Source: an uncultured Kiritimatiellota bacterium (lineage in GTDB: Bacteria > Verrucomicrobiota > Kiritimatiellia > RFP12 > UBA1067). From it: a DNA stretch of 64,000 nucleotides. The translations under genes were made by a program, and so were the position numbers. Positions 17,057-50,131 of the stretch are shown here, in pieces (within the stretch, counting starts at the first letter, position 1; each line of letters starts with the position of its first letter). A model generated the notes under the pieces. The model was not told the DNA's origin, made no database searches, and saw nothing but the letters and a program-made list of their open reading frames with translations. The stretch lies in contig CAKURH010000001.1 in assembly GCA_934675625.1 (NCBI GenBank), forward strand, positions 474 to 64,473, given 5' to 3'.

Positions 17057-17376
17057 CCTTTGCGACCTTTGCGTTGAAAAGAAGTATGGGGTGCAAGAAC
17101 AGTTCGCAGTCTCTGCGAGAGGTCGTCGGCGCGTGGGGAGTCTGCGACGCTGAACACGGAGGTGTTGGAGGAAGGGAGGCACGGAGGTGGTGTGAGGCTT
17201 GGGACTCCGTGTCTCACGAACTCCGTCACCTCCGTGTTAAACGCCGTAGGCAACAGGGCTCTGCCAGACTTTTTGTATTCTAACGCAAAGAACGCAGAGG
17301 GGAGAAACGCGAAGAGCGCAAAGACCTTTGCGACCTTTGCGTTGAAAAGAAGTATGGGGTGCAAGAACAGTTCGCA
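17057..17376. repeat. About 268-bp tandem duplication: two 52-bp direct repeats (17057-17108 and 17325-17376) flanking MITE copy A1
   Basis: cctttgcgacctttgcgttgaaaagaagtatggggtgcaagaacagttcgca occurs twice. Confidence 0.6.
17140..17264. repeat. MITE-like palindromic repeat, copy A1 (core …GCTGAACACGGAGG…CCTCCGTGTTAAACGC…)
   Basis: Internal inverted repeats aacacggaggtg/cacctccgtgtt and ggcacggag/ctccgtgtc. Homologous to at least 9 other copies in this window. Confidence 0.7.
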
Positions 17377-17501
17377 TGTGGTGCGAAGCCAGCCTCTCGC
17401 TACGCTCTCCTTGCCCCGCGAAGCGGCACCTGTGTTAAAAAACGCCGACCGAGGTGACGCAAAAAAAGCGCAAATAAGGAGAATCGCAAAAAGTGCGTTT
17501 G

Positions 17502-17519
17502 CCCCTTTATATAAAGGGG
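17502..17519. promoter_or_regulatory. Perfect 18-bp palindrome CCCCTTTATATAAAGGGG in the long leader region of the beta-helix gene
   Basis: Seen directly. Followed by a duplicated ttgcgcgaaatagacgg motif (17543-17580). Confidence 0.3.
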
Positions 17520-17666: not shown

Positions 17667-17679
17667 CCCCCCCCCCCCC
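17667..17679. repeat. Homopolymeric C13 tract 24 nt upstream of the start codon of the 1397-aa beta-helix surface protein; candidate slipped-strand phase-variation switch
   Basis: gtgtagt-CCCCCCCCCCCCC-attaaatgctaaaaaatactaaaaATG. Confidence 0.55.
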
Positions 17680-17703
17680 ATTAAATGCTAAAAAATACTA
17701 AAA

Positions 17704-20700
17704 ATGAATACAAAACTAATAGTTAAAGCGTTTCTCGGGGCGGTTTTCGCCTTGACCGGCGCGCGGCTCTCGGCGGAAACGCGGGTCGTCGACAAGCTCC
17801 ATGGGCCGTATTTTTCGGTTCAAGAAGCCGTGGATGCGGCATCTGAAGGCGATACGGTCTTCATCAAAAACGGCGTCCATGACGTGGGCGGCAGTCTCGA
17901 CGGCTTTAAGACGTCCATGTCGAACCGCGTCTACGTCACGAAGTCCCTCACGCTCGTCGGCGAGTCGAAGGAGGGCGCGATCATCAAGGGGGCCTACGCG
18001 ACGGAGGGCGTTGACGACAAGGGCCTCGGTTGCGGTGCGAACGCCGTGCGCTGTCTCGGCATCAATGCGGACAACGTCGTCGTCTCGAACCTGACGCTCA
18101 CGGGCGGCGCGACGCACAGCACGTCCGCCGGGAACGACAAGGAGGAGAACAACGGCGGCGGCGTCTACGTGGCGAACGGGAGGACGGGCGTCGTCCTTGT
18201 GGACTGCATCGTCTCCAACAACGTCGCGCGACGTGCGGGTGCGCTGCGCTACGCCAACGACGGTGCGGCCAATCACGGCAACTGCCTTCTCGTGCGCACG
18301 TGGGTTCACGCCAACAAGGCGCTAGACCGCGATCCCGCCGTGCGCGGATGTCTCGCGGCGTTCTGCCTCTTCACGGGGCATTACAGCAGCTCCAGCCTCT
18401 CCTATGCGGTGACGTTCGTGAACTGCACGTTCGCGGACGGCTTCGGGCGCAACCACAGCGGTAGCGCGGACGTGGCGGGCTACAACTGCCTCTTCGCCGA
18501 CACGTGGTTCAAGGACGAGAACGCGGTGGATCAGGCCCCGGCCGCCGCGCAGTGGCACAACTGCGCGTTCAACAAGCAGGACGCCACCACGACCTCGACG
18601 ACGAACGCGGCCTGCGTCTTCAATCCCGGCTATGACCTCTTCATGGCGCCGCCGCTCGCCGACTACCGCCTCCATGACGGCGCGATGACAGTCATCGGCA
18701 AGGGCGACGCTTCGTTCCTCGATCAGATTCCCGAAGCATATCGGAACATCGACTTCTATGGCCATGCGGTCGATGCCGCGTCCGTGAGTCTCGGCTGTGC
18801 GCAGGAAGTCGTCGCACCGACCGGCGGCACGATCACGTTTGCCGGGCAGAGCGGGATGTCGGACGCGAAACAGCCGCTCGGCAGCTATGGCGTGAAGACG
18901 GATTGCGGTCTCTATTCCTTCAACGGACGGCCCCTTGGAAACTCGAAAGACCTGGGCTACGTCCGCACGATGGAGGGCCGCACGGTCGTTACGGTCACGC
19001 ACGATCCGGCAGGCGCAACCTCAGAGGCGCGCCAAAATGGGCTTCACTCGTTTGCCGCGTCGGGATCGGACACGATGCGGCGCTTCGCGCAGATGGACGG
19101 CTCGTTTGCCCTGATGGCGCCGCCCGCCGGAAAGACGCTTACGCTTACGCCCACGTTCAACGATGCCGTCCTTACGGTCGATCGCGCCTCCACGTCCGAA
19201 AATCCGGATGGGACGGAAGACGCGCCCTATGCGAGCATTCAGGCGGCGATTGACAAAGTTGCTTCGGGAAAGTTCGCGACGATTCGCGTCAAGGCGGGCG
19301 TCTACGACAACGATGCGGGACGCTTGGCCAACAACCTCACGAACCGAATCTTCTCGAATGGCCGCAAGGTGAGGCTCGTCTCGGTGGACGGACGCGGCAA
19401 GGCCGTTCTGCTTGGTGCTCCCGATCCGAGCGTCGCACTCGATGCTTGGCCGTTTGGCTGCGGGGCGGGCGCGATGCGGTGCGCGGTCCTGCAGGACGGA
19501 TGCGCTATTCAGGGCTTTGCCTTGACGCGCGGCTACTCGAACACGAACGCCGACAACACGGGCCGTCGCGGCGGCGCACTCTGGCTGAACCAGGGCGCGG
19601 CGGCGCTCGACTGCGTCATCACGAACAACGTAGGCTGGCAGGGCGTCGCGATCAACGGAGCGGAATCCGGCCTGGTGCCGTCGGCGTTTGCCCTGCGGTG
19701 CTACATCGCCGACAATTATCCGATTACGGACGCCGCAAAGACAGGCGGCATTGGAGGCATCGTCCGCTCGACGACCGTTGGCTCGTCGATTCTCTACGAC
19801 AACCACGGCAGCAACTTCGGCAGCTATGAGCGGCAGTACACGTTCCAGACGACGCTTGCGGACGGTGCGGGCGCGGACAACGGCAACCTGCTCAATGGCG
19901 CCAATAACGTAAACGCCGTCATCCTCGCGAAGACTGGCAACCTCAGTAGTCCGACGCTCATCGGTGGCGTCTACCAGACGGCAAACGGCAAAATCAATGT
20001 GGAGGCCTCGTCCTCGTTCATGAACGCCGATCCCCTACTGGCCGATCCGGCGTACGGCGACTTTCGCTTGGGCGCGACCTCGCCCGCGCGAACGTGTGGC
20101 GTGACGACGCACGACGACTTTACGGATTCGACGAAGGCGGCCTACTACATGTTCGGCGCGACGGACTTCTTCGGCAACGTCTTCCGCCTGTTCGACGGCA
20201 AGCCCGTCTGCGGTGCGGTCGACCTCTATGCGCCGACGGTCATCTTCAACGGCGAGACGAAGGTGTTGGGCGTGTCGTCCGACCGCACGCTCACGTACAC
20301 GAGTACGGGCGACGATCCGCATCCGTGGCTTGGTCTGGAGGTGACAGAGAACGGCACCGTCACGACGAACGCGACGAAGAGCTTCACCTACACGGTGCCG
20401 GATTCGATAGACAACCCGTATGCTTTGACGATTCGCGACCTCTATGACTCGAACTGGTACGTGAGCGATGCGGACGGCGATGATGCGAATGCGGGTTCGT
20501 CCGCCGCGCCGAAGAAGACGCTCAAGGGTGCGCTTCAGTACGCCGTGTCGGGTGACACCGTGCACGTCGCGGCGGGCACGTATGCGACCGAGACGATGAC
20601 GCAGACGAAGGCGTTTGGAGCCATGAACAATGCAGCGTATGCGCTTCCGTCGCGCGCCGTCGTGCCGGCAGGTGTGTCCGTCATCGGTGCGGGCGCGGAC

Positions 20701-21897
20701 AAGACGTTTATCGTTGGTGCGGAAGATCCGTCGGCAGAGGCGGCAAACAAGGGTTGCGGGCCGAACGCTGTCCGTTGCGTCGCGCTTGCGAAGGGTGCGC
20801 GGCTTTCGGGCTTTACGCTGACAGGCGGACGCACAAACGCCGGAACCAAGAACGCCGAAGGAAGCTTCCCGAATGTCGATGATGACGAAGGCGGCGGCGT
20901 CTTGGCCGAATATGGCACGGAAGCCGATCTGGCGGTCGTCTCGGACTGCATCATCTCGAACTGCGTCGCACGGCGTGGCGGCGGTGGCTATAACGGGGTT
21001 TACAACCGTGTCCAGTTCTTGGAGAACAGCATTATCCAAAGTGGCAACGGTGCTGCTGCGCGCGGCAATGACGGCAAGTCCTGCATCCTTGCAAACTGCC
21101 TTATCGATCGCAACGAGGGCTGGGCGACGGTTTATTATCCGACGCTCGTCAACTGCACGTTTGGCGCGGACAACACGCACAGCGGCAACAGGGAGGGTCA
21201 GCAGGTTATTGCAGATGCGCCTGCCGTGACGAACTGCCTGATTTTGGGCACGAAGATTGCCACGGCGAGGACGGCGTTTTACGGTTGCGCATTCTCGTCC
21301 GCGACGGAAACGCTCCTGAAAAAGAACTCATCAGCGGGCGTGGATGCCAGCTGTCTTGTCTCGGACGACTTGTCGGTGGACGCGAATCTGGCGCCGGTCA
21401 TTGGCGCGAACGATGCGGTCGATGCGGCGGGGGCTGCTTTCTACGATGCGGCGAAGTGGGGCGATCTTGACGTCTACGGGAATCCGCGCGTGATGAACGG
21501 CAACCGGCTGGACGTCGGCGCGGTCGAGGCCGACTGGCGTCCGCTCTACACGAAGAAGATCGGCAAGCGGTTCGTCGTCACGGCGGTTGATCCGGCGGTG
21601 GAACTGGTCGACGACGGCGTGGCGATTCCGGCAGGGGCGTCGCTCGCGGCGACGGTTGGCCGTGCGGGCCGCGCGGATGGCGCCTACTTCCTGAAGGCGA
21701 CGGTTGCGGACGGCGCGACGTGTGCGGTCACGCGCGATGGCGTGGCGGCGGAGTCGCTGACGGCGGGCGAGAACGTGGTGCGCTATGTGACGGGCGAGAC
21801 GGGGCTTTCGGACTTCGTCTTCACGGCGGATGCGCTCGGCTCGACGGTGCTGTCGTCGCTCAAGGCCGACACCGGCATGCTGCTGATTCTGCGGTAA
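17704..21897 (+). CDS. Giant secreted right-handed parallel beta-helix (pectin-lyase-fold) protein made of three tandem homologous beta-helix modules
   Basis: Signal peptide MNTKLIVKAFLGAVFALTGARLSA. Three modules each begin with a …QAAID…G..V.VKAGVY-type cap and contain GCG.NAVRC…LTGG…GGGV blocks (about aa 60-200, 530-640, 905-1010). AT-rich 5' end. Confidence 0.7.
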   Translation: MNTKLIVKAFLGAVFALTGARLSAETRVVDKLHGPYFSVQEAVDAASEGDTVFIKNGVHDVGGSLDGFKTSMSNRVYVTKSLTLVGESKEGAIIKGAYATEGVDDKGLGCGANAVRCLGINADNVVVSNLTLTGGATHSTSAGNDKEENNGGGVYVANGRTGVVLVDCIVSNNVARRAGALRYANDGAANHGNCLLVRTWVHANKALDRDPAVRGCLAAFCLFTGHYSSSSLSYAVTFVNCTFADGFGRNHSGSADVAGYNCLFADTWFKDENAVDQAPAAAQWHNCAFNKQDATTTSTTNAACVFNPGYDLFMAPPLADYRLHDGAMTVIGKGDASFLDQIPEAYRNIDFYGHAVDAASVSLGCAQEVVAPTGGTITFAGQSGMSDAKQPLGSYGVKTDCGLYSFNGRPLGNSKDLGYVRTMEGRTVVTVTHDPAGATSEARQNGLHSFAASGSDTMRRFAQMDGSFALMAPPAGKTLTLTPTFNDAVLTVDRASTSENPDGTEDAPYASIQAAIDKVASGKFATIRVKAGVYDNDAGRLANNLTNRIFSNGRKVRLVSVDGRGKAVLLGAPDPSVALDAWPFGCGAGAMRCAVLQDGCAIQGFALTRGYSNTNADNTGRRGGALWLNQGAAALDCVITNNVGWQGVAINGAESGLVPSAFALRCYIADNYPITDAAKTGGIGGIVRSTTVGSSILYDNHGSNFGSYERQYTFQTTLADGAGADNGNLLNGANNVNAVILAKTGNLSSPTLIGGVYQTANGKINVEASSSFMNADPLLADPAYGDFRLGATSPARTCGVTTHDDFTDSTKAAYYMFGATDFFGNVFRLFDGKPVCGAVDLYAPTVIFNGETKVLGVSSDRTLTYTSTGDDPHPWLGLEVTENGTVTTNATKSFTYTVPDSIDNPYALTIRDLYDSNWYVSDADGDDANAGSSAAPKKTLKGALQYAVSGDTVHVAAGTYATETMTQTKAFGAMNNAAYALPSRAVVPAGVSVIGAGADKTFIVGAEDPSAEAANKGCGPNAVRCVALAKGARLSGFTLTGGRTNAGTKNAEGSFPNVDDDEGGGVLAEYGTEADLAVVSDCIISNCVARRGGGGYNGVYNRVQFLENSIIQSGNGAAARGNDGKSCILANCLIDRNEGWATVYYPTLVNCTFGADNTHSGNREGQQVIADAPAVTNCLILGTKIATARTAFYGCAFSSATETLLKKNSSAGVDASCLVSDDLSVDANLAPVIGANDAVDAAGAAFYDAAKWGDLDVYGNPRVMNGNRLDVGAVEADWRPLYTKKIGKRFVVTAVDPAVELVDDGVAIPAGASLAATVGRAGRADGAYFLKATVADGATCAVTRDGVAAESLTAGENVVRYVTGETGLSDFVFTADALGSTVLSSLKADTGMLLILR

Positions 21898-21932
21898 GTG
21901 GGAGGCCTACGGAGAGAGGTTTGAGGAGAGAG

Positions 21933-22500
21933 GCCTGCGGCGCATAACACGGAGGTGTTGGAGAATGGGAGGCACGGAGAATGAAAGGAAGTGCGCCGCA
22001 GGCTTTGGCTTTGGAGGCAGGGGTTCGCGCAGAGCCGCAGAGAGCGCAGAGGTTCGTAGGAGCACTCTGCGCGCTCCGCGTCTCTGCGTGAGGTCTATGA
22101 ATGAAGCGGAGTGTGGGCGGTTAAAGAAGGCCGAAGGTCTCGCTTCGCCAACCACTTCCGTGTCGCCGGACGGCGTTTCAGTGTCTTCCGTGGTCGAGAA
22201 TTGTGAAAGGTTTAACCACGGAAGGGGAGGAAGCGGGCTTCGCCCGGCACGGAACGAGGTTGGGGAAAGAAGACCTTCGGGGCTCTTCAACCACCGTTCG
22301 TCCGCCTTCGAGAGCGGTATTTCGCGCAGAGCCGCAGAGAGCGCAGAGATTCGTAGGAGCACTCTGCGAACTCAGCGTCTCTGCGTGAGGTTTATGAGTG
22401 AAGCGGAGTGTGGGCGGTTGAAGAAGGCCGAAGGTCTTGCTTCGCTAAACCTTTCTGTGTCGCCGGATGGCGTTTCGGTGTGTTCTGTGGTTCAAAGCAA
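21933..22500. repeat. Repeat block: partial MITE left arm (A2), then a tandem duplication of an about 300-bp unit (B element gcgcagagccgcagag…ctctgcgtgagg plus a 110-bp C element)
   Basis: The two units (about 22024-22200 and 22318-22500) are more than 85 % identical by eye. The track ORF 21965-22522 is just their translation. Confidence 0.6.
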
Positions 22501-22518
22501 AAGAAAGGAAATGAATCG

Positions 22519-23850
22519 ATGAAACGATGGGGTGCGTTCATGTTTACGGTTGCCGCCTTGTTGGCTGCGGTTGGCGCGGTGACGGGCGGGGAAACGTATG
22601 ACGTCATTGTCGCCGGCGGCGGGCCGGCGGGCATCGGCGCGGGCTACATGGCGGCGGCACGTGGCGCGAAGACGCTCGTCCTGGAGAAGTCTGGTCGTCT
22701 CGGCGGCATGGCCGTTCAGGCGATGGTCAGTCCGTTCTCGTTCTCCGTCGACAGCCCCGTCGTGCGACGGCTCGCCGCGCGACTTGCGATGGGCAAGACC
22801 GTCGACTTTGCGCGCGCGGACGTGCTGGCCTACGACGCGCTGACCGAAGCCGGTGCGGACGTTCTTCTGCACGCGGACGTGATCGGGCCGGTGATGGACG
22901 GCAATCGCGTGGTCGGACTGGAGGTGAATCTGGCCGAGGGGCGGCGCGTCTTCCGTGCGAAGGCTGTCATTGACGCGACGGGTGACGGCGTTGTCGCGGC
23001 GGCGGCGGGCGTCCCGTATGAGCAGGGGCGCACGGGCGACGGACTCGTCCAGCCGATGAGCGTCATGTTCACGGTCGGCGGCATCGCGCCCGGTCGGCGG
23101 CTGATCGCCGTCTCGGAGGAACAGGCGCGCGAGCAGAAGATCGGCGGCCGGACGTGGGAGGCGATTGTCGCCGAGGAGATCGCCGCCGGCAACCTGCCGC
23201 CGGAGGTCTCGGTCATCCGCCTCTACTGGGCGCCGGACGAGACGATGACGGTCGTCAACGCGACGCAGGTCTGCGGCCTTGACGGTGCAAAGTCGTCCGA
23301 CCGCACACGCGCGGAGATCGTCTGCCGCAAGCAGGCGTTTCAGGTGCTGGACGTCCTGCGCCGCCGAGTGCCGGGCTACGAGAAGGCGCAGATCGTCGAG
23401 ATGCCGGCGGTTGTCGGCGTGCGCGAGACGCGGCGGTTCGAGGGCGTTGATCGCCTGACGACGGAGGATGTGCTGACGGGGCGGAAGCGTACGGACGCGA
23501 TTGCGCGGAACTGCTCGTTCGTGATTGACATCCACAATCCGGCGGGCGGTGGACAGGCGCATGGGCGCGGCGAGAGCGCGACCGGGGGCGCGCGGCGCGT
23601 GAAGCCGTATGACATCCCGTATGGTGCACTTGTGCCAAAGAAGGTTGAGGGGCTGCTCTTCTGCGGACGCTGCCTTTCGGCGTCGCATGAGGCGCTGGCG
23701 TCGTGCCGCGTGATGGGCAATGCGATGGCGACGGGCATGGGTGCTGGCGCGGCGGCGGCCTATGCGGTGCGGCGAGGGATTGCGCTGCGCGATGTGCCGG
23801 CGGAGGAACTCGATCTCTTCGGCGCCGAACCTGAGCGAGGCGGGAAGTGA
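22519..23850 (+). CDS. FAD-dependent oxidoreductase (FAD_oxidored/GIDA-like family), secreted or membrane-anchored
   Basis: N-terminal hydrophobic segment, then the dinucleotide-binding motif YDVIVAGGGPAGIGAG. About 440 aa. Confidence 0.7.
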   Translation: MKRWGAFMFTVAALLAAVGAVTGGETYDVIVAGGGPAGIGAGYMAAARGAKTLVLEKSGRLGGMAVQAMVSPFSFSVDSPVVRRLAARLAMGKTVDFARADVLAYDALTEAGADVLLHADVIGPVMDGNRVVGLEVNLAEGRRVFRAKAVIDATGDGVVAAAAGVPYEQGRTGDGLVQPMSVMFTVGGIAPGRRLIAVSEEQAREQKIGGRTWEAIVAEEIAAGNLPPEVSVIRLYWAPDETMTVVNATQVCGLDGAKSSDRTRAEIVCRKQAFQVLDVLRRRVPGYEKAQIVEMPAVVGVRETRRFEGVDRLTTEDVLTGRKRTDAIARNCSFVIDIHNPAGGGQAHGRGESATGGARRVKPYDIPYGALVPKKVEGLLFCGRCLSASHEALASCRVMGNAMATGMGAGAAAAYAVRRGIALRDVPAEELDLFGAEPERGGK

Positions 23851-23863: not shown

Positions 23864-24044
23864 GTCTGCGACGCTGAACACGGAGGAAACGGAGATTGGG
23901 AGACGCGGAGGCGTGGAGAAGGTTTTAGATAAGATTGACAGAATTGTTGAGGTTGGTTCGCCAAGCCTTTCTAATCTTGTGAATCCTGTCGGAAAAACTC
24001 CGTGTCTTCCGAACTCCGTCACCTCCGTGTTAAGCGCCGCAGGC
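23864..24044. repeat. MITE-like repeat, copy A4 (long variant with an about 75-bp internal insert)
   Basis: gtctgcgacgctgaacacggagg…ctccgtcacctccgtgttaagcgccgcaggc. Confidence 0.65.
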
Positions 24045-24068: not shown

Positions 24069-26675
24069 ATGAGAAAGAGAGAAATACGAATGAAACGACT
24101 TGTTGCTTTTCTGTCGGGCGTGTTGATGCTGACGATCACGACAAGAGGTGCCGTGACGGAACGCGCCGACGTTGTTTGTCCTGTGCCGTTTGAACGCGCG
24201 TTCACGGTCGCGGGCGTGACGAACGCGACCGTCGGCGCCTTCGCCGTGCCGTCCGAGACAGACCTCCGTCCGTGGCGCGTACGCTACTCGTTCCGCTACC
24301 GCACGGCGGGCTTTGCGGGCGAGGGGCTGCGGCTCGTCACACAGGCCGCGTTCGACGGTGGCACGCGGTTCGACAACCTCACGCCAACCGTCCGCAACCT
24401 GAACTGGGATGCGGGGACGACCTACCGCTGCGGGGCGTCCGAAGACTGGAAAAAGGTCGATCTCGACGTCGACTTCAAGAACGCGCTGCCGCCGGAGGTG
24501 CGCGTCGTGTGCGAGGGGCTGGTCGCGACGGGGCGCGTCGAGTTCACCGACTTCGCGGTCGCGCTCGTCCTGAAGCCACGCCATCGGCTCACGGGCGGCG
24601 AATTTCCGCTCGAAGGCGGAAACGTGCTGAAGCACGTCTTTTTCGCCGAGACGGGCACCGTCCACATCGCGCTCGCCGATCCGGCGCACGTCGTCCGTGC
24701 GGCGGTCCGCGTCCGAGACGCCGAGGGGCGTCCCGTCGGCGCGACGCGCGCGCTCGCCGCCGTCGATGCGGTGACGCTCACGGGGCGCGGATACTACACG
24801 CTGGAGGTCGCCGCGTCCTACGCCGACGGCACAAAGGTGACGACGACGGGGTCGGCCGCCGTCCTCGGCCCGGCGCCGTCCGCCGCGCAGACGGCGGATT
24901 CGCGGTTCGGCGTGATGGTCGTCAACGGCGGCGCGGGGGCGTTCACGCGCGCGTTGGGCAGTCGCTGGGACTGGCGCTTCTTCTTCCACGGCAAGGACAA
25001 CGCGGCGTTTGTCGGCCCGCAGTTCGGCGAGGGGGCGATCTACGCGGGACACCAGTCGCCGATCTACCCCGAGGCGATGGATCCGGCGCACGTCGGCAAG
25101 GGTGGTATGTGGCCGGCGAAGGACTGGGCGAAGCAGCGTGCGCGGACGCGGGCGTTCCTGGAGAAGAATCCGTGCTTCGCGGGACGCCGCCTCTGCCTCG
25201 TCAACGAGCCGGACTTCAAGTGGCGCGGCACGATTCCCGAAATGGTGCAGGCGCATCGGATCTTCGCCGAGGAGGCGCATCGCCTCTATCCTGACTGCGA
25301 GGTGCAGGGCCCGGCGTGCAGTCGCGTCAAGCCGGACTATCTGCGTGCGCTCGGCAAGGAGGGCTTCTTTGACTGCATCGATGCCGTCAACATCCACGCT
25401 TACGTAGACGGCACGAAGCCGGAGGGCGAGTTCCGCCTGAAGCTGCGCGAGGGAATGGACGTCATTCGCCGCGAGTTCGCGTGCGCGAAGCCGGTCTACA
25501 TCACCGAGTTTGGCTGGACGACGGAGAACGGCACGTGGCAGGAGCCGGTCGGCGAACTGACGCAGGCGCGCTACCTGACGCGTGCGTGCACGTTCGTCGC
25601 GTCCGAGGACATCCGCGCCGCCGTCTGGTTCTGCGATCTCTACGTCGCGCGCAACTACGGCGAGGGCGGGTTCTCGATGCTGCGACTCGGCAATGACTGC
25701 ATTTCGCCGAAGCCGGCGGTCGCCGCGTTCGCGACGCTCGCACGCAACCTGTCGGACGTGCAGGGACGGACGCGCGCGCAGATGATTGGCCCGGAGACGT
25801 GGCTCGCGACGGGGCGGCGTGCGGACGGCTCGGCCGTCACGCTCGTCTGGACGCGCACGGGCGAACGGGAGATTCCGCTGCCGGTGCGCACCGTGCGAGC
25901 GGAGAGTTTTCTGGGTGCGCCTGTCGCGCTCGACGGCGCGACGCTGCGCGTTTCGGAGTCGCCCGTCTATCTCTTCGGCGATGAGACGTATGAGGGGCCC
26001 GCGTGGGTCGCGCCGTCGGTGGACGCGGCAAAGCCGGTCGTCGTCGCGGCGGACGAGTATCCGCTCGGACGGACGGGCGTGGGCTGGAAGTGCCGCGACA
26101 ACTTGCAGACGCCGATTCTGCCCGACCGCTGCTGGACGGGCGCGACGAACCGCTGTCCGCGCGTGCGCGTCGCCTATTCGGACGAGGGGCTGATCTTCAA
26201 CGTCGAGGTGGACGATCCGAAGCACGAGCAGCCGTATGCGCAGGAACGCCTCATCGAGGGCGATGCCGTCACGGTCGCGGTCGATGTCGACCGGGGGCAG
26301 GAGTGGCAGCCGAACGCGCACATCACGAGCTTCAAGGGCCACCGTGCGTTCGAGTACACCGTCGCCTTGCGGGACGACGGCAAGCGAGAGGCCTGGCGGC
26401 GAAACGCCTGGGACTTCGACATCCGCCCGAACGCGCCAGTCGTCGTCTTCAACGGCATCTCGCGCATCCGGGAGGAGAAGACGCGCTACATGATTTGGCT
26501 CACGTGGCCGCGTCTTGGACTGGACGGCCCGCCGCCGCCCGGTACGAAGCTCGGCATCGCCGTTTCGGTCAGCGATCTGACGGACGGGGAGCGGAAGACG
26601 TACGACCTCTTCGGTGGCATCTCCGGCACGCCCGATCCGACGAAGTACGGCACGTTCGTCTGCGAAGGGAAGTGA
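24069..26675 (+). CDS. Secreted clan GH-A (TIM-barrel) glycoside hydrolase with N-terminal beta-sandwich and C-terminal CBM9-like domain; paralog of 30879-33494
   Basis: NEPD (acid/base) and ITEFGWTT (nucleophile) blocks. C-terminal RVAYSDEGLIFNVEVDDP… is CBM9/DOMON-like. Alternative start at 24090 (MKRLVAF). Confidence 0.7.
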   Translation: MRKREIRMKRLVAFLSGVLMLTITTRGAVTERADVVCPVPFERAFTVAGVTNATVGAFAVPSETDLRPWRVRYSFRYRTAGFAGEGLRLVTQAAFDGGTRFDNLTPTVRNLNWDAGTTYRCGASEDWKKVDLDVDFKNALPPEVRVVCEGLVATGRVEFTDFAVALVLKPRHRLTGGEFPLEGGNVLKHVFFAETGTVHIALADPAHVVRAAVRVRDAEGRPVGATRALAAVDAVTLTGRGYYTLEVAASYADGTKVTTTGSAAVLGPAPSAAQTADSRFGVMVVNGGAGAFTRALGSRWDWRFFFHGKDNAAFVGPQFGEGAIYAGHQSPIYPEAMDPAHVGKGGMWPAKDWAKQRARTRAFLEKNPCFAGRRLCLVNEPDFKWRGTIPEMVQAHRIFAEEAHRLYPDCEVQGPACSRVKPDYLRALGKEGFFDCIDAVNIHAYVDGTKPEGEFRLKLREGMDVIRREFACAKPVYITEFGWTTENGTWQEPVGELTQARYLTRACTFVASEDIRAAVWFCDLYVARNYGEGGFSMLRLGNDCISPKPAVAAFATLARNLSDVQGRTRAQMIGPETWLATGRRADGSAVTLVWTRTGEREIPLPVRTVRAESFLGAPVALDGATLRVSESPVYLFGDETYEGPAWVAPSVDAAKPVVVAADEYPLGRTGVGWKCRDNLQTPILPDRCWTGATNRCPRVRVAYSDEGLIFNVEVDDPKHEQPYAQERLIEGDAVTVAVDVDRGQEWQPNAHITSFKGHRAFEYTVALRDDGKREAWRRNAWDFDIRPNAPVVVFNGISRIREEKTRYMIWLTWPRLGLDGPPPPGTKLGIAVSVSDLTDGERKTYDLFGGISGTPDPTKYGTFVCEGK

Positions 26676-26702
26676 TGGGCGGAAGCGCTGAGAGATATTT
26701 TT

Positions 26703-27250
26703 CGCGCAGAGCCGCAGAGGGTCGTAGGGGCGCTCTGCGGACTCAGCGTCTCAGCGTGAGACTCGTGGAGGGGGTGTCTGCGACGCTGAACACGGAGGTG
26801 TTGGAGGATGGGAGGCACGGAGGTGGTGTGAAGCTTGAGACTCCGTGTCTCACAAACTCCGTCACCTCGCGCCCGCTTGCGCGCCCTTCGGGTTCGCCTG
26901 CGGCGAAGGTGCCCTCCGAAACGCCTTGCGTTTCTTCGGCGCATGTGTTAAACGCCGTAGGCAACAGGGCTCTGCGCACTCAGCGTCTCTGCGTGAGATC
27001 GTCGGTGCGAGGGGTGTCTGCGACGCTGAACACGGAGGAAACGGAGATTGGGAGACACGGAGGCGTGGAGAAGGTTTTAGACAGGATTGTTGGGGGTGGC
27101 TCACCAAGTCTTTTTGATCTTGTGAATCCTGTCAGAAGAACTCCGTGTCTCCTACACTCCGTCACCTCCGTGTTAAGCGCCGCAGGCTTTGACTTTTGGG
27201 GGAGAGATTCGCGCAGAGCCGTAGAGAACGCAGAGGTTCGTGTCGGTGCT
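26703..27250. repeat. Composite repeat block B-A5-B-A6-B (two MITE copies, one with a nested insert)
   Basis: A5 26774-26976 and A6 27014-27187 are separated by B fragments (…cagcgtctctgcgtgag…). Confidence 0.65.
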
Positions 27251-27253: not shown

Positions 27254-28810
27254 ATGAAACGATTAATCTTGAGCTTATTCCTTGTGACGGTTGGGGCGGT
27301 GGGTGCAGTCGCGGCAGAGGCGAATTTTGCCCAGCGCGCGTTTCAGCCCTACCTCGACTCCGGCGAGCTTCCCGGCGTGATTACGGTCTTCCACAAGGAC
27401 GGACACGAAGAAATCTCCTGCCTCGGCTTCGCCGACGTCGCCGCGCAGCGTCCGATGTCGCTCGATGACGTCTTTCAGCAATGTTCGCAGACGAAGGGCT
27501 TCTGCGGCGTGACGGTCGCGCAGCTCATTGAAGCGGGCAAGGTCGCGCTGGACGATCCTGTCGCGAACTATCTGCCCGAATTCAAGACGCTCTGGGTCGA
27601 GACCGCGAACACGAATGGCGTCCGCCGCCTCGAACAGGCGCGGCAGCCGCTGACGCTGCGCCACTGCCTCACGCACACGGGCGGATTCCCGTTCGAGCTC
27701 GCGAACTTCACCGCGATGGGCGGATGGTCGCACCGCATGCCGCTGCGGAGCGTCGCGGCGACGGCGGCGGCGACGCCGCTCCTCTTCGAGCCGGGCACGG
27801 GCGTGCGCTACTCGAACGTCGGCATTGACGTCGCGGCGGCGGTCGTCGAGGTCGTGACGGGACAGCGGTGGGAAGATGTCGTGTCCGAACGCATCCTGAA
27901 GCCGCTCGGCATGAACGCGACGGGCTTTCAGCCGACGGACGAGCAGCTGAAGACGCGCATCGAGATCTACCGCGTGAAGAAGGGGAAGAAGGCCGAGCAT
28001 GTGCCGTTCTGCGCGTCGATGCCGCCGCCGTTTCGCGGCGACCGCGTCTTTTCGTCCGCCGGCGCGGGGCTGTGGACGACGGCGCGCGATCAGCTGAAGT
28101 TCTACAAGATGCTGATGAACCTTGGCGTGGGCGAGAACGGCGTGCGGATTCTGAAGGAGGAGACGGTCCGGCGGCTTCTGGCCGTCTCGCAGCGTCCCAA
28201 AAGTTTGTCGAAGGACGGCTATTCGCTTGGGTTCGTCGCGCCGTTTGCGGACGAGGCGGACGGCTGGTTTGGGCATGGTGGCGCGTGGGCGTCGCAGTGT
28301 CTCGTCAACGGACGGCGGAAGGAGCTGCGGATGCTGGTCGTGCAGGTTGTCGATGCCTACTGGCCGCGCACGGTCTGCGCCCAAGCCGCCGAGGCGTTCT
28401 TCCGGCAGGTGGAGGAAAAGGAATCGCGCAGAGCCGCAGAGCCCGCAGAGATTCGTAGGAGCACTCTGCGGACTCAGCGTCTCTGCGTGAGGTCGTCGGT
28501 GCGAGGGGTGTCTGCGACGCTGAACACGGAGGTGTTGGAGGAAGGAAGTCACGGAGGGGATGTGAAGCTTGAGACTCCGTGTCTCACAAACTCCGTCACC
28601 TCTGCGTTAAACGCCGTAGGCAACAGGGCTCTGCGGGCTCAGCGTCTCTGCGTGAGGTCGTCGGCGCGTGGGGTGTCTGCGACGCTGAACACGGAGGTAT
28701 TGGAGGAAGGGAGGCACGGAGGGGATGTGAGGCTTGAAACTCCGTGTCTCACAAACTCCGTCACCTTCGTGTTCAGCGCCGCAGGCAGCAAAGATACAAA
28801 TCACAAGTAA
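27254..28810 (+). CDS. Beta-lactamase-related serine hydrolase (class C / PBP4-like, SxxK = SQTK). Its last about 130 codons are encoded by MITE repeats; the native stop appears to have been replaced.
   Basis: Signal peptide MKRLILSLFLVTVGAVGAVAA, then …QQCSQTKGF… The hydrolase homology ends near codon 385 (about nt 28410); the frame stays open through B-A7-B-A8 to the TAA at 28808-28810. Confidence 0.65.
   Translation: MKRLILSLFLVTVGAVGAVAAEANFAQRAFQPYLDSGELPGVITVFHKDGHEEISCLGFADVAAQRPMSLDDVFQQCSQTKGFCGVTVAQLIEAGKVALDDPVANYLPEFKTLWVETANTNGVRRLEQARQPLTLRHCLTHTGGFPFELANFTAMGGWSHRMPLRSVAATAAATPLLFEPGTGVRYSNVGIDVAAAVVEVVTGQRWEDVVSERILKPLGMNATGFQPTDEQLKTRIEIYRVKKGKKAEHVPFCASMPPPFRGDRVFSSAGAGLWTTARDQLKFYKMLMNLGVGENGVRILKEETVRRLLAVSQRPKSLSKDGYSLGFVAPFADEADGWFGHGGAWASQCLVNGRRKELRMLVVQVVDAYWPRTVCAQAAEAFFRQVEEKESRRAAEPAEIRRSTLRTQRLCVRSSVRGVSATLNTEVLEEGSHGGDVKLETPCLTNSVTSALNAVGNRALRAQRLCVRSSARGVSATLNTEVLEEGRHGGDVRLETPCLTNSVTFVFSAAGSKDTNHK
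28424..28786. repeat. Composite repeat block B-A7-B-A8 overlapping the 3' end of the serine-hydrolase ORF
   Basis: Two consecutive MITE copies (about 28505-28640 and 28670-28786), each preceded by a B element. Confidence 0.65.
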
Positions 28811-28820
28811 GGAGAAATAA

Positions 28821-30700: not shown

Positions 30701-30826
30701 GCCTGCGGCGCTGAACACGGAGAAACATGAGAAGCGGAGGCACGGAGAGAGGGCATAGGAGAGACTGGGTTAACAAAACTCCGTGTCTCACAAACTCCGT
30801 CACCTTCGTGTTCAGCGCCGCAGGCA
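30701..30826. repeat. MITE-like repeat, copy A9, with a perfect 19-bp terminal inverted repeat GCCTGCGGCGCTGAACACG
   Basis: The left end gcctgcggcgctgaacacgg is the reverse complement of the right end cgtgttcagcgccgcaggc. Confidence 0.7.
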
Positions 30827-30878
30827 CATTGACACAAGGAACAGATTTTCGCTACAATCCAAATCAGGAGTCTAAAAG

Positions 30879-35327: not shown

Positions 35328-36175
35328 AATGCACTTATAAAGAATATGGCCGTTCTATCTATGACAAGACGTTCGATCATGAACTGCAAGGACTTGTGAC
35401 TCGGAAAAAGAAGGTCGGTGAGAAAGAGGCCGAACGAATGGCGCAAAAGGAAGCCATCAAGGTGGCTGTCCTTGAAACGATGCGGGCGTTTCCGCAAATC
35501 GAGCCTGCCTTGATTTGGAGGGGAATTTATGAGGTGCATATCCATCGCAAGAGTGGACTGGATGACAAGTCCGTGATTGATCGCGTCGTAAGCGCTGATC
35601 AGAGTTGGAAGAAGTCGAGTGGGCATGCGTTTGAGGAAATGATCAAACTCTTGGCAAACGATGCTCTTGTCGGCACGGGAATCGAGATTCTTCTTCAGAG
35701 AGACCTCAATACGATTATCAAGGCGGGTGAGCTTGCCAATGAACCGCGTGACATCAGTTGGCTGAAGGAACAAATCAAGGGAAGCGTCTTTGATCTGTTT
35801 GCAACATGCGTAAATAAGGATGGAAAGCGGTTTTGTTACGGATGCATTCAAAGCAAGACAAGCATACGAGACCGCGTGACACGGGATCGCGAGCCATCTT
35901 TGGCGGCTATGCATTCGTTCTTCTGGAGCACGGTCATTGTCTTGGATGGCGATTTTATGAAGAATCCAAAGTTCCTCGCAATGGTCGATGGAGGGACGCA
36001 CGAATATCCTGATAACGGATGGCATGGCATGTACGTGTTCTCGGATCTTTATAAGGGACAACGAGTCTATCCCATTCATGTTGATTTCAAGAGATTCGCC
36101 GAACATGCAAAGATTGCGGCTGAGTATTGGAAAACCCAGCGACAGTGGTTTGACGAGAAGTGGAAGGCCGAATAA
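35324..36175 (+). CDS. Hypothetical protein, translationally coupled (ATGA) to the C5-MTase; candidate cognate type II restriction endonuclease
   Basis: 283 aa with no recognisable family. Low GC like the MTase body. A possible degenerate PD…(D/Q)xK segment (VFDLF…YGCIQSK). Assigned by position only. Confidence 0.4.
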   Translation: MKCTYKEYGRSIYDKTFDHELQGLVTRKKKVGEKEAERMAQKEAIKVAVLETMRAFPQIEPALIWRGIYEVHIHRKSGLDDKSVIDRVVSADQSWKKSSGHAFEEMIKLLANDALVGTGIEILLQRDLNTIIKAGELANEPRDISWLKEQIKGSVFDLFATCVNKDGKRFCYGCIQSKTSIRDRVTRDREPSLAAMHSFFWSTVIVLDGDFMKNPKFLAMVDGGTHEYPDNGWHGMYVFSDLYKGQRVYPIHVDFKRFAEHAKIAAEYWKTQRQWFDEKWKAE

Positions 36176-42068: not shown

Positions 42069-42548
42069 ATGACAAAGAGAAAAGCACGTAATGAAAAGCC
42101 GCAGGGGCGGCTAGTCGAGACAGGCGTCCGCCCGGCTGGCGTGGCTCTGCTGTCGTTGGCGTGCGCAGGTCTGCTCTCCGGCTTCGCGACAGGGGCTGAC
42201 CTCTCCCCTAGGGGGGGGGCGGCAGCGACGGCGGGCTCACGGCGGGGCGCGACGCGCGCACGTGGGGCAAGCCCGATCCGCGCCTCTTCGACGTCGTCCT
42301 GCCCGACTTCTTCGAGGTGGACTTCGTCCGCGTCTACGACGAGGGGCCGGACGGAACGGAAAATGAGAATTCTGTGCGGAACTAATCAAAAGGAGATCCA
42401 GACATGCAACTCACCACAATCTTGGCGGCTTCGGCCTTGCAGTTCGCGACCGGCATCACGACTGACCGTCCGGCGGGCGTCTTCATCGAGGGCGTCGGCG
42501 CGGCGTTCAGGACCGAGGGCGCGGCGGCGTTCACGCGCTGGACGGTGA
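42069..42548 (+). pseudogene. Small signal-peptide-bearing ORF interrupted by a G9 tract; in the sequenced state it runs into an Arg/Ser-rich out-of-frame tail. With G10 it would encode a 105-aa protein ending at 42385.
   Basis: MTKRKARNEK…VALLSLACAGLLSGFATGADLSPRGG-(G9). One extra G gives …KPDPRLFDVVLPDFFEVDFVRVYDEGPDGTENENSVRN*, which has strong GC3 bias and a stop just before the RBS of the next gene. Confidence 0.35.
42211..42219. repeat. Homopolymeric G9 tract inside the small ORF; candidate phase-variation or frameshift site
   Basis: ctctccccta-GGGGGGGGG-cggcagc. Confidence 0.55.
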
Positions 42549-46413: not shown

Positions 46414-46457
46414 CAGGAACGATTGTGACAAGAAAGACGAAGAGAAAGGTTCATTCA

Positions 46458-47684
46458 ATGAAAACGCTTTTCAGCACTTTGGCAGTTGCCCTGACGGCTG
46501 GCGCCCTGACGGCGCGGCCCGTGATCACGGACGTCGCGCTTGTGAACGAGAACGACCGAAACAAGAATGTCGTCGTCACCTACACGCTTGCGGACGAGGA
46601 CGCCATCGTCACGGCCGCATTCACGGCGGACGACATGTCGATTCCCCCCGCGGCGACGACAAACCTCACGGGGGACGTGAATGCCCGCGTGGGCGTTGGC
46701 GTCCGTCGGTTCGTCTGGCCGGTCCGTGCGGCGTTTCCGCAGACCGTCCTGAAGAACCTGAAGGTTCACCTGACGGCCAGGAGCGTCGGCCAGCCGCCTG
46801 CGTATGTGGCGTTTGACCTGACGGGGCGGGATCGCCCGCGCTACTACGTGTCGGACGATGCCGTGCCGGGAGGCGTCTTGTCGCGGACGTACAAGACCGA
46901 CAAGCTGCTGATGCGGCGCATTCCGGCGGCGGGCGTCGAGGCGAAGCTGGGCGATGTCACGGGGGCGAGGGCTTCGGAGTGTCCGATGCGCCTTGTCTCC
47001 TTCACGGAAGACTATTATATCGGCGTCTTCGAGCTGACGGCCGGACAGTGCGCCTGGATGAAGGGCAAGCCGATGTCCGAAGCGGACGAAGAGTCGGCGG
47101 TGAAGCCGACGATCAACGACCCTTCATCGACGTGGGAAGCCCTGCGCGGCAAGGGATTCTCCTGGCCGGCGGTGGCGGACGGACAGACCTCGGCGCATGC
47201 GGTGGACGCCACGTCTCTGCTGGGAAAGTTGCGCACGAGCCAGGGCTATGCGTTTGACTTGCCGACGGACGCCCAGTGGGAGTTTGCCGCGCGTGCGGGG
47301 CAGCGCACGGACTATCCGGGGGCGGATGCGTCGTCTCTGCTGGAGTGCGGCTGGTACAAAGACGAAACGAATGACGTGGTGGAAGTCGGGCTGAAGCGTC
47401 CGAACGGGTTCGGCCTGTATGACATGGGCGGCAACGCGCTCGAGCATGTCCTGGATCTCTACGGCACGTCGGCTGAGACGCCCGCCTACGGCAGCCGCCA
47501 GACGGATCCGGTCGGCCCGACGACGCCGGACGAGAAGTGCTACCGCACGCGGCGCGGCGGGTCATGCGGCCAGACGTGCGTTGAAGGATTCGCGAAAGTC
47601 TACGCGCGGATACCCTATGGATTCGACAACTGGGCGGCTTTGACAGCCCCACGTCTCGTCTGTCCGGTCTGCCCCATCGAGTGA
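46458..47684 (+). CDS. Exported FGE-sulfatase/SUMF1-domain protein, paralog 2
   Basis: MKTLFSTLAVALTAGALTA signal peptide. LPTDAQWEFAARAG…GLYDMGGNALEHV…RTRRGGSCG. Confidence 0.7.
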   Translation: MKTLFSTLAVALTAGALTARPVITDVALVNENDRNKNVVVTYTLADEDAIVTAAFTADDMSIPPAATTNLTGDVNARVGVGVRRFVWPVRAAFPQTVLKNLKVHLTARSVGQPPAYVAFDLTGRDRPRYYVSDDAVPGGVLSRTYKTDKLLMRRIPAAGVEAKLGDVTGARASECPMRLVSFTEDYYIGVFELTAGQCAWMKGKPMSEADEESAVKPTINDPSSTWEALRGKGFSWPAVADGQTSAHAVDATSLLGKLRTSQGYAFDLPTDAQWEFAARAGQRTDYPGADASSLLECGWYKDETNDVVEVGLKRPNGFGLYDMGGNALEHVLDLYGTSAETPAYGSRQTDPVGPTTPDEKCYRTRRGGSCGQTCVEGFAKVYARIPYGFDNWAALTAPRLVCPVCPIE

Positions 47685-50131
47685 GTTGTCTCTGTTTGAA
47701 AAAGATTCGAACGAGTGTCGCCGTTGCTTTGTTCGTAGCAAGCGTGTGCGGGGCGGCGTCTGCGCCTGATCCGGCGGAGGCCTTTCGCCGCCCGCCGCAG
47801 ACGGCGAAGGTCGGCGTCTGGTGGCATTGGATGGGGACGGGCGTCTCGCGCGAAGGCCTTGTGCGCGATCTCGACTGGATGGCGGAAAGCGGCGTCGGGA
47901 CAGTCGTGGCCTTTGCCGGGCCGGACGTCTCCGCGCCCGGCAAGGTCGAACTCGCGGGCGGGCCGTCCGAGGACCTTGTCGCGGCCACGCCCGCGTGGTG
48001 GGCGCTCATGCGCTTCGCCGTCGCGGAGGCCGTGCGGCGCGGACTGGAAGTCGGCCTTCACAACTGCCCCGGCTATTCGCATTCCGGCGGGCCGTGGACA
48101 AGGCCCGAACACGCGATGCGCGAACTCGTCTTCGAGCAGGACGGCCGTCGGCTCGGCGTCGGCGGCCAGCCGTTCGCGGGGACGCTCGTTGATGCGCGTG
48201 AGATTGCCCGTTATTCGCTCCCGTCCGGCGAGCTGGTCGTTTCGCATGTCGCGAAGCCGTCCTTCAACAGTCCGGCTCAGAAGGACGCGACGGGCTACGA
48301 ATGCGACAAGATGTCGGCGGCGGCGGTCAACGCCCATTGGGATCATGTGCTGGACGACGTGAAGAAAGCCCTCGGCGACTTCATCGGAAAGGGCTTCAAT
48401 TTCCTCCATGTTGACAGCTATGAGGCGGGAACGCCCAGCTGGACGCCGCAGATGCGCGAGGCGTTCCGGAGACGACGCGGTTACGATCCGATCCCGTATC
48501 TGCCGAGTCTCGCCGGATTCGCCGTTTCGGGTGCGCGTGCGGCGACATTCCGGCGCGACTTCGACCGCACGGTGGCGGACCTCTACCGAGACGTGTTCTT
48601 CAGGCTTTCGCGCGACCGTCTGCACGCGGCGGGGCTGGCGTTCTCGTGCGAACCCTACACGGGTCCGTTCGAGACGGAGGCCTGTGCGGCGTTCGTCGAT
48701 CGCGTCGGGACTGAGTTCTGGAGCGGGGGCTGCCCGTGGGATGGCTACGAACTGCCGTCGCCCGGGCAATGGGGGCGCGTGCGCGACAGCCATTTTCCGC
48801 AGGGCGTTCCGAACCGGCTGTTCGAGGCGGAGGCCTTGACGGGCTGGCCGGAAAGCTCGCGATGGGACGAGACGCCCGCCAAGCTGAAGCCATTCGTCGA
48901 TTTCGCGTTCGCGCGCGGCATCAACCGCCTGATGCTGCATTCGGTCGCGCTCCAGCCGTGGGGCGACGGGATTCGCCCCGGCATGACGTTCGGCTGCTGG
49001 GGCACGCATTTCGGGCGCACCCAGACGTGGGCGCAGGACGCCGCCGTGTTCTTCGCGTTCATCAGCCGTTGCCAGGCGCTCTTGCAGTGGGGCGCGCGGG
49101 CGGACGACGCGCGGTGGCCGGGCGGCGACTGGGGACAGTTCGTGCGGCGGTCGGACGACGTGACCGTGCGCTTTCTCGTCAATCCGTCTGCGACGAACTT
49201 CACGCTGACGGCGCGTGGCGAATGGTTCGACCCGGCGACGGGCGAGATCGGCGCGCCGCCGTCCGTTGTCGCGCCGGGGCAAAGCGGCTTTCTCGTGACG
49301 GGGCGCACGGAAGGGCTGTCGCCTGAACCGCCGCCGCTGCCAGCGGCTGAACTGACGGGGACGTGGACAATCGACTGGCGGAGCGCGGCGCCGGGGCCGT
49401 CGCCGGAGACGGTGCGGACGACGCATCCGTTCTTCGACTGGACGACATGTGCGGACGACGAGATTCGCCACTTTTCCGGCACGGCGACGTATCGGCTTTC
49501 ATTCGACTGTCCGGACGCGGCGACGGTCACGGCAATCGACCTTGGCGACTTGCGCGGCAACAGTGCGTGCGTGCGACTCAACGGCGTCTCGCTGGGCACG
49601 GTCTGGGCACCGCCGCATCGTGTGCGCGTGAGGCCGGGACTCTTAAAGCCGACGGGCAACCGAATTGAGATCGACTACACGAACGTCTGGGCGAATCGGC
49701 TCATTGGCGACGAGCGTTTCCCTGAAGTCTGCGAACGGCGGACGGCGCAATGCCTTGGACGTGAGATCGGCAGCCGCCCGACGCGCTATCCGGCGTTTCT
49801 GAAGACGGGGCGGCTGCCGCCGGACACGCGGCGGCGCACGTTCTCGATGTGGAACTACTTCACGGCGGAGTCGCCGCTTGTGCCGTCTGGCCTCGTCGGC
49901 CCCGTGCGGCTTTTGGACAAAACTTCGATTGGCGAGAGGCCGCCTGCGGCGCTGAACACGGAGGGTTTTGAGAAACGGAGTCACGGAGATTTGAGGATGG
50001 GTGTAGACAGGATGGGCAGAATCCTAAAGGTCAACGCTCCCAATCCTGTGAATCCTGTAAATCCTGTCAAAACCTCCGTGCCTTCCCACCTCCAGAATTC
50101 TCCGTGTTCAGCGAAAGCAACTGAACTTTAG
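47681..50131 (+). CDS. Secreted TIM-barrel glycoside-hydrolase-like protein (816 aa). Its C-terminal about 60 aa are encoded by MITE copy A10.
   Basis: GTG start overlapping the upstream stop. …VGVWWHWMGTGVSREGLVRDLDWMAESGVG… The frame stays open through gccgcctgcggcgctgaacacgg (…PPAALNTEGFEKRSHG…) to 50131. Confidence 0.6.
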   Translation: MSCLCLKKIRTSVAVALFVASVCGAASAPDPAEAFRRPPQTAKVGVWWHWMGTGVSREGLVRDLDWMAESGVGTVVAFAGPDVSAPGKVELAGGPSEDLVAATPAWWALMRFAVAEAVRRGLEVGLHNCPGYSHSGGPWTRPEHAMRELVFEQDGRRLGVGGQPFAGTLVDAREIARYSLPSGELVVSHVAKPSFNSPAQKDATGYECDKMSAAAVNAHWDHVLDDVKKALGDFIGKGFNFLHVDSYEAGTPSWTPQMREAFRRRRGYDPIPYLPSLAGFAVSGARAATFRRDFDRTVADLYRDVFFRLSRDRLHAAGLAFSCEPYTGPFETEACAAFVDRVGTEFWSGGCPWDGYELPSPGQWGRVRDSHFPQGVPNRLFEAEALTGWPESSRWDETPAKLKPFVDFAFARGINRLMLHSVALQPWGDGIRPGMTFGCWGTHFGRTQTWAQDAAVFFAFISRCQALLQWGARADDARWPGGDWGQFVRRSDDVTVRFLVNPSATNFTLTARGEWFDPATGEIGAPPSVVAPGQSGFLVTGRTEGLSPEPPPLPAAELTGTWTIDWRSAAPGPSPETVRTTHPFFDWTTCADDEIRHFSGTATYRLSFDCPDAATVTAIDLGDLRGNSACVRLNGVSLGTVWAPPHRVRVRPGLLKPTGNRIEIDYTNVWANRLIGDERFPEVCERRTAQCLGREIGSRPTRYPAFLKTGRLPPDTRRRTFSMWNYFTAESPLVPSGLVGPVRLLDKTSIGERPPAALNTEGFEKRSHGDLRMGVDRMGRILKVNAPNPVNPVNPVKTSVPSHLQNSPCSAKATEL
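49943..50113. repeat. MITE-like repeat, copy A10 (long variant with internal aatcctgt triplet repeats)
   Basis: gcctgcggcgctgaacacggagg…cctccgtg…ctccgtgttcagcg. Confidence 0.65.

Follow-up and report, generated by a model that had tools for sequence, protein, structure and literature searches.

We analysed a 64-kb stretch of DNA from an uncultured Kiritimatiellota bacterium (contig CAKURH010000001.1; hereafter the window) that carries a dense family of palindromic repeats, referred to here as repeat A. Comparison with related loci in other genomes indicates that the A copies in the window very probably belong, as gene-less relatives, to a hairpin element that encodes a GxxExxY nuclease when full-length. 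That this nuclease recognises the repeated arm blocks and drives the spread of the family is a more tentative proposal, suggested by the association of the gene with the arms, the co-divergence of the two, the conserved catalytic residues and the motif-array structure of the arms; we regard it as a serious possibility, somewhat short of probable. Taking both parts as one statement, we lean towards reading the repeats as gene-less, non-autonomous members of a nuclease-encoding palindromic selfish family that is mobilised by its nuclease.

Repeat A is strongly overrepresented in the window. The core GCTGAACACGGAGG occurs 15 times with up to two mismatches, compared to 0.77 occurrences expected, and the 19-mer GCCTGCGGCGCTGAACACG occurs 14 times with up to three mismatches, compared to 0.10 expected. 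None of 100 shuffles equalled either count. Sequence reading and profile searches gave nine copies and one left-arm fragment between 14.2 and 50.1 kb, with lengths of 112–188 nt and all on the + strand, and all window copies match a 50-position arm profile. The dense multi-copy family described in the original prediction is therefore real, but "at least 10 copies" was a slight overcount, since the set consists of nine copies plus the left-arm fragment at 14159–14185 (ACACGGAGGCACGGAGAGACGGAG; + strand). Two structural claims hold without change: a perfect 19-bp terminal inverted repeat is present at 30701/30825, and all eight complete copies are predicted to fold into long hairpins (−52 to −96 kcal/mol).

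The arms themselves are not the simple inverted repeats they were first taken to be, but in-register arrays of four GGAG blocks. Across 44 elements, with units of 103–190 nt, the A arms are approximately 47 nt long and align without gaps. Each arm starts with a 12-nt terminus (GCCTGCGGCGCT, GTCTGCGACGCT, GTTGCTGTCGCT or ATTGCTTTCGCT) followed by four conserved blocks, AACACGGAG, CGGAG, GGAG and CRCGGAG, spaced at 9, 8 and 8 nt; in the alignment of all arms, GGAG falls at positions 19, 28, 36 and 44. The centre of an element is empty, holds a nested module, or belongs to a GC-rich 145-nt class. Since the two arms are inverted relative to each other, the element can fold as a long hairpin, interrupted by 4×4 internal loops. 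However, the arms do not covary. At 16 variable positions, the match between arms was 0.30 within elements and 0.40 between elements. Arms of one element are thus no more alike than arms of different elements, and there is no compensatory change between them. Judging from these alignments, the conserved feature is the inverted array of motif blocks, not arm-to-arm pairing. In an AT-rich genome (loci L072–L077), two A-like hairpins without a gene come after a GxxExxY gene that neighbours Cpn60, and these hairpins have AACACGGAG...GGCACGGAG blocks. As the blocks are kept in this low-GC background, they appear to be conserved regardless of genome composition.

The family extends well beyond the window. 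In 596 Gb of scanned sequence, a 20-nt degenerate A terminus matched 67 stretches, compared to approximately 4 chance matches by our own estimate. Nearly all are from gut or rumen Kiritimatiellia-like metagenome-assembled genomes (MAGs) of Hadza and Nepali people, goat and cattle, representing at least 12 species-level genomes; the same search of viral contigs gave no matches. Profile searches of the 67 loci and the window recovered 45 paired elements and 50 solo arms. An exact look-up of one protein from the window in the contig index gave no record. Because A ends occur in many genomes, a local duplication or an assembly artefact can be ruled out. Context counts outside the window were not relied on, as gene calls based on G+C at third codon positions (GC3) ran through repeats and made gene-to-element distances unreliable.

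Across the window and the fetched loci, the sole gene found between A-type arms encodes a 125-aa PD-(D/E)XK GxxExxY protein. This open reading frame (ORF) is present in three orthologous long elements, L037 (596 nt), L053 (578 nt) and L030 (387 nt, internally deleted), and matches PF13366 PDDEXK_3 (E=3e-36) and TIGR04256 GxxExxY (E=2e-37). L037 comes from the MAG CAKUGW, a close relative, another contig of which (L011, L061) is orthologous to the window. A cognate insertion sequence (IS) transposase, for which a search had been proposed, was found neither in the window nor between arms elsewhere; instead, the cognate enzyme appears to be the GxxExxY nuclease.

Homologues of the cargo protein reinforce this association. 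There are 3754 at E≤1e-10, and the closest 120, mostly on contigs of approximately 1 kb, exceed the domain in length. For at least 62 of 99 homologues, the C-terminal tail is the translated right arm (e.g. SPCLPSS..SVLSAAG, SESN). A metagenome scan gave 41 loci, of which 35 had enough flanking sequence for an arm test, and inverted arms flank the gene in all 35 (z=6–54 relative to shuffles; 59–82% protein identity). Grouped by flank, the 44 ORF-bearing loci make up at most 33 groups, since the shortness of some flanks prevents linking. The same arms hug the GxxExxY gene at independent sites (L068, L069–71 and L078), often with gene-less A copies in tandem alongside; these sites are Dus|FAD oxidoreductase, unknown|DUF2201 and HsdM|Fic. 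Furthermore, there are two arm subfamilies, one with ACGGAG arms and a GCCTRCGG terminus and one with TGGGAG/TTGGAG arms and a TTGCTTYCGC terminus, and arm subfamily sorts with the clade of the GxxExxY protein. Across 50 homologues, the catalytic D, E and K never vary. An AlphaFold model of the protein (pLDDT 85.6) has only weak matches in the PDB, the best of which are PD-(D/E)XK nucleases. A classification of PD-(D/E)XK proteins lists the function of the GxxExxY family as "unknown" (PMC3424549), and our literature search found no paper describing an association between GxxExxY genes and palindromic arms.

These observations are consistent with a simple scheme. The full-length element comprises a GxxExxY PD-(D/E)XK nuclease gene of approximately 125 codons between two A arms. 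The nuclease would recognise the repeated arm blocks and promote, in cis and in trans, the copying or movement of full-length and gene-less elements, either through cleavage and repair-mediated copying, as in homing, or through excision and insertion. Gene-less copies may then be retained between co-transcribed genes, since an insert that can fold and has few stops would do little harm in such places.

Distant homologues of the nuclease in other phyla (37–45% identity), encoded on replicons of cultured bacteria, lie co-directionally between housekeeping genes, and five of eight are flanked by heptamer arms or hairpins. The arms consist of CACAGAG, CGCAGAG and CACGGAG units in Bacteroides, CACAGAG units in Bernardetia and CGCGAAG-type units in Sphingomonas. 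In Gemmatirosa, complete gene-less CGCAGAG hairpins are found on both sides of the GxxExxY gene, and their unit is that of a second module of the window, module B (see below). The flanking repeat of the Treponema homologue is 11 nt only. Comparison of filled and empty fabD-fabG spacers in Sphingomonas shows that the inserted unit is TCACGCGAAG..ORF..CTTCGCGTGA. In L131, an arm-flanked GxxExxY gene lies two genes from a PF05635 gene in the same operon, and heptamer-array hairpins of a different type border the PF05635 gene on either side.

At L131:328–10486, a type I restriction-modification operon (HsdR, HsdM, HsdS) is interleaved with the PF05635 gene, the arm-flanked GxxExxY gene, and Fic and TIR-domain genes. 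Each of the small genes is in a separate spacer, suggesting a preference for landing in defence operons.

Occupancy by repeat A differs between closely related genomes. The CAKUGW loci L011 and L061, which lie on one contig of this Nepal MAG, are orthologous to 17.7–40.4 kb of the window. Aligned blocks are 94–98% identical over most of the span and 79–81% identical in the first two blocks, which fall in the gene at 17704–21897. The A copies at 23864 and 30701 are common to both genomes. The spacers at 21898–22559 and 28421–28821 are entirely different in CAKUGW and contain other modules there; the break at 28421 is inside the 3' end of a beta-lactamase-fold ORF. Elsewhere, L012 and L044, both from one MAG, do not differ in flanks or arms but differ by 105 nt exactly at the hairpin apex, one genome has an extra tandem A copy relative to another, and modules are joined in varying combinations at a common 13-nt terminus. 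Near-identical gene-less copies in different intergenic regions, together with completely different intergenic occupancy in genomes whose genes are 94–98% identical, support the non-autonomous, selfish behaviour that was originally proposed.

Insertion is not limited to intergenic regions. The original prediction held that repeats inside a genuine conserved gene would speak against a mobile element, and such repeats do occur. In L059, an A element and a solo left arm lie in frame within ORF 343–1842, a thiamine pyrophosphokinase-HPPK (TPK-HPPK) fusion gene. Homologues P0121–P0130 carry the insert, and P0141, P0154 and P0159 lack it. The insert states are none, solo arm, and right arm plus left arm, always in frame. 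As the insertion is in frame and variably present, it supports mobility rather than refuting the reading as an element. The closest analogue for this behaviour is provided by the Rickettsia palindromic elements (RPEs), which are 100–150 bp long and are found both between genes and in frame within conserved genes. Like RPEs, the A family is palindromic, has few stop codons and adds a peptide segment. The host lineages are unrelated, so the likeness is functional only, and the A family has an associated protein gene, whereas we know of no protein gene associated with RPEs.

Several observations weigh against the reading as a nuclease-driven element. There is no GxxExxY gene in the 64-kb window, and no ORF remnant in the loops of gene-less copies. 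Only a single orthologous ORF-bearing locus is represented among the 67 loci found by DNA pattern, which means that gene-less copies vastly outnumber full-length ones. In L072, the hairpins are only downstream of the GxxExxY gene, and of the distant homologues L128–L130, two show direct repeats in place of inverted arms and one shows no repeats at all. The offset search gave no exact ends or target sites. Target-site duplications, which would be expected of MITEs, were not found: 81 combinations of end offsets were compared across 44 elements, none was enriched for direct repeats of at least 3 bp, and comparisons of filled and empty sites gave no clean duplication.

Within this framework, the leading alternative is a passenger nuclease. 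Here, the hairpins would spread by other means, and a homing-type GxxExxY gene would invade their loops, using the arms as repair homology. The hairpin apex is indeed an indel hot spot, as in the 105-nt difference between L012 and L044, loops host nested modules (L002:1907–2228 and the long forms), and gene-less copies greatly outnumber ORF-bearing ones. A comparison with homing endonuclease genes, which include the PD-(D/E)XK enzyme I-Ssp6803I, is apt to the extent that these are also small nuclease genes in structured, otherwise non-coding selfish elements with co-directional insertion into host transcription units. However, A elements have no evident intron or intein, occupy many unrelated sites and have abundant gene-less copies. 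Against a passenger nuclease, arms and ORF are jointly missing from the empty fabD-fabG site, and arm type co-diverges with the protein, although homing predicts the latter too. We consider a passenger nuclease unlikely, though it retains some weight.

A second alternative is that the repeats are similar to repetitive extragenic palindromic (REP) sequences and bacterial interspersed mosaic elements (BIMEs), and owe their mobility to a REP-associated tyrosine transposase (RAYT) whose gene lies elsewhere in the genome. REP units are palindromes of approximately 20–40 nt. They are spread by RAYTs; for most families of palindromic intergenic repeats, the agent of spread is unknown. REP/BIME sequences with their RAYTs (REPtrons) are the closest logical analogue of the A family because copies of the genome's own repeat bracket a gene for an enzyme. 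The two also have in common intergenic palindromes in mosaic clusters, tandem arrays with fixed spacers (L059, L015) and a lack of target-site duplication. It should also be noted that our search covered the window and the fetched loci, so a different mobilising enzyme, such as a RAYT, may be encoded elsewhere in the genome, which counts against the nuclease as mobiliser. Nevertheless, A units of 103–190 nt with 47-nt motif-array arms are three to five times longer than the short REP palindromes, and no Y1 transposase was detected among the window genes or between the arms of the fetched loci, where the sole gene is the PD-(D/E)XK GxxExxY gene rather than a Y1 enzyme. The A family is also not strictly extragenic, as shown by the in-frame TPK-HPPK copies and by ORFs that read into copies. 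We regard mobilisation by a RAYT as improbable.

We give a similarly low probability to the A copies being host-selected RNA hairpins in 3' untranslated or intercistronic regions, serving for instance as terminators, as elements for RNase III or RNA stability, or as sponges for protein through repeated ANGGA-like CACGGAG motifs. In the window, A copies sit 13–30 nt past stop codons between co-directional genes, the predicted folds are very stable, and the + strand RNA is more stable than the − strand RNA in 8/8 copies. However, this strand bias is gone outside the window (11/20). In ORF-bearing elements, G:U-type mismatches (103 versus 135) reveal no bias towards the gene-sense strand. Arm positions do not covary, none of the terminator-like sites found coincides with an A copy, and no Rfam family is matched. 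Furthermore, sites are not conserved between near-identical genomes, and some copies are in frame inside genes. A role as a sponge for CsrA, based on the resemblance of CACGGAG to ANGGA, was set aside because the motifs are in the stem and the sister modules CGCAGAG and CGCAAAG lack GGA. The hairpins may still have a secondary effect on mRNA processing.

[quoted passage not shown] Of terminal inverted repeats, target-site duplication and an IS that shares the ends, A elements show only the first.

The individual copies in the window, all on the + strand, are of two main forms, and left arms start at the first coordinate given for each. Short forms (112–125 nt) are found at 17140–17251 (112 nt, four GGAG blocks per arm, −64.4 kcal/mol, preceded by the right half of module B at approximately 17094–17130), 28510–28622, 28675–28786 (−69.9 kcal/mol) and 30701–30825 (125 nt). 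The copies at 28510 and 28675 are units 1 and 2 of a 165-nt tandem duplication of half-B plus A, and the first lies within the read-through tail of the beta-lactamase-fold ORF. The copy at 30701, which has the perfect 19-bp terminal inverted repeat and is also present in CAKUGW (L061), is followed by a promoter-like site at 30829–30858. Long forms (172–181 nt) have a palindromic centre of the ACAGGATT/AATCCTGT type, in agreement with the predicted insert-bearing variants. They are located at 23864–24044 (181 nt, beginning 14 nt past the stop codon of an FAD oxidoreductase gene and also present in CAKUGW, L011), 27016–27187 (172 nt, 87–94% identical to the copy at 23864) and 49942–50121 (180 nt, with three AATCCTGT units and a right terminus of the GCGAAAGCAAC type; a GH106 ORF runs into it). 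A matching right arm is present for every copy except the one at 21933–22003, which keeps a left arm, a short loop and only the terminal GCGCCGCAGGC of the right arm. The copy at 26776–26963 is a short form with a foreign palindromic insertion of approximately 77 nt (approximately 26869–26945) in its right arm. This insertion has small palindromes of its own (GAAACGCCTTGCGTTTC and others) and is a nested element.

Other modules in these genomes consist of three tandem 8–9-nt units, a loop and three inverted units, with unit sequences ACAGGATT, CACGGATT, CACGAAT, CGCAGAG and CGCAAAG. Module B has three CGCAGAG units, a loop and three CTCTGCG units (GCGCAGAGCCGCAGAG...CTCTGCGTGAGG). The second palindromic module of the original prediction is thus real and has four copies in the window, but often only its right half precedes an A copy. 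This half-B plus A unit (162–165 nt) recurs five times in the window, once as a tandem pair, which bears out the proposed composite, mosaic nature of the repeats. The complete B hairpins, on the + strand, are at 22025–22094 and 22322–22391 (copies 1 and 2 in a tandem duplication), 26693–26762 (directly past the stop codon of the gene at 24069–26675) and 28424–28493 (at the end of the beta-lactamase-fold gene, and the exact point of divergence from the related genome). Module C, an array of CTTTGCG units, is at 17020–17080 on the + strand, with a second copy at approximately 17278–17345 that also has GCAAAG units. In CAKUGW, module C occupies the site that holds A and B in the window (21.9–22.5 kb). 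The same construction may hold for modules B and C, which would then also be gene-less forms of nuclease-carrying elements.

The tandem duplication that contains two of the B hairpins (22024–22491, upstream of the FAD oxidoreductase gene) has a period of 297 nt. Its aligned 171-nt copies (22024–22194 and 22321–22491) are 90% identical and include module B and a conserved segment that reads ...MNEAECGRLKKAEGLAS... in one frame; the orthologous spacer of CAKUGW lacks the duplication. AT-rich arrays built of 7-nt units (AGATTTN, AAATCTN) at 5067–5162 and 59501–59590, directly upstream of the start codons at 5148 and 59605, resemble both the GC-rich modules and the hairpins around the L131 PF05635 gene in their heptamer-array appearance. 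In L012:3600–4400, solo ACAGGATT-unit arrays and a right half of module B are located within an apparent long coding region on the opposite strand. These half-modules suggest in-frame persistence inside genes, encoding NPV-type repeats similar to those in the tail of the window GH106 ORF.

The window has a G+C content of 64–72%, and nearly all of its genes are on the + strand. A copies are positioned between + strand genes or at their 3' ends. Among the products of the flanking genes are GH2 and GH106 enzymes, a protein with a beta-lactamase fold, an FAD oxidoreductase and a Laminin_G_3/PATR protein. The repeats had been placed between convergent or co-directional genes for carbohydrate-active enzymes; the flanking genes are indeed co-directional and include GH2 and GH106, but none is convergent, and the beta-lactamase-fold and FAD oxidoreductase genes also take part. 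The ORFs starting at 27254 and 47681 have no stop codon upstream of the repeat, so that reading continues into it. No Rfam family was matched at gathering thresholds in the whole window, and no rRNA gene was found.

Three further features of the window were noted. A low-GC island at 33513–36175 (0.51–0.53, compared to approximately 0.65) holds the genes of a C-5 cytosine DNA methylase and of a restriction endonuclease similar to BsaWI. The segment at 33.5–38.4 kb is reduced to only approximately 50 nt in the otherwise collinear CAKUGW MAG, which indicates recent insertion or deletion of a type II restriction-modification island. Two homopolymer tracts are candidate sites of slipped-strand phase variation or assembly-prone spots: approximately 12–13 C at 17667–17680, situated 25 nt upstream of where the 1397-aa gene at 17704 starts, and approximately 10 G at 42213–42222, in the 41.9–42.4 kb spacer.

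Among known systems, the closest architectural analogue of the A family is the 23S rRNA intervening sequence (IVS) with an S23p/four-helix-bundle ORF (PF05635), which is inserted in a 23S rRNA helix and excised by RNase III. ORF-bearing 23S rRNA IVSs consist of a stem, tandem heptamers (GACAGAT, three to four times in Coxiella) and a small ORF, and are suspected to be selfish (PMC4990558). Full-length A relatives similarly have an inverted-repeat stem, heptamers next to the ORF and a small, readily decaying ORF in the loop, and heptamer-array hairpins also surround the PF05635 gene of L131. However, the window copies are outside rRNA and have no ORF, and what their full-length relatives carry is a PD-(D/E)XK nuclease, not a four-helix bundle. 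Still more speculatively, GxxExxY/PDDEXK_3 proteins, of which there are thousands across bacterial phyla, might be the enzymes of an unrecognised class of mobile palindromic elements. These enzymes would read CRCRGAK-type heptamer/octamer arrays and spread copies with and without the gene into the spacers of operons, the 3' ends of genes and coding regions, and ORF-bearing 23S rRNA IVSs would be a sister class.

Our data tie a repeat family of gut Kiritimatiellia, by consistent genomic association, to one small nuclease family. This gives a concrete hypothesis for GxxExxY proteins, namely that they bind and cut heptamer-array arms, and a possible explanation for co-directional GxxExxY genes within housekeeping operons such as fabD-fabG. 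It also provides an architectural link to the long-unexplained ORF-bearing 23S rRNA IVSs. In practical terms, the elements may contribute to breaks in metagenome assemblies, given that most homologues are on contigs of approximately 1 kb, and may add spurious C-terminal tails to predicted proteins. In the genomes that carry them, they may rewrite intergenic regions and gene ends between near-identical strains.

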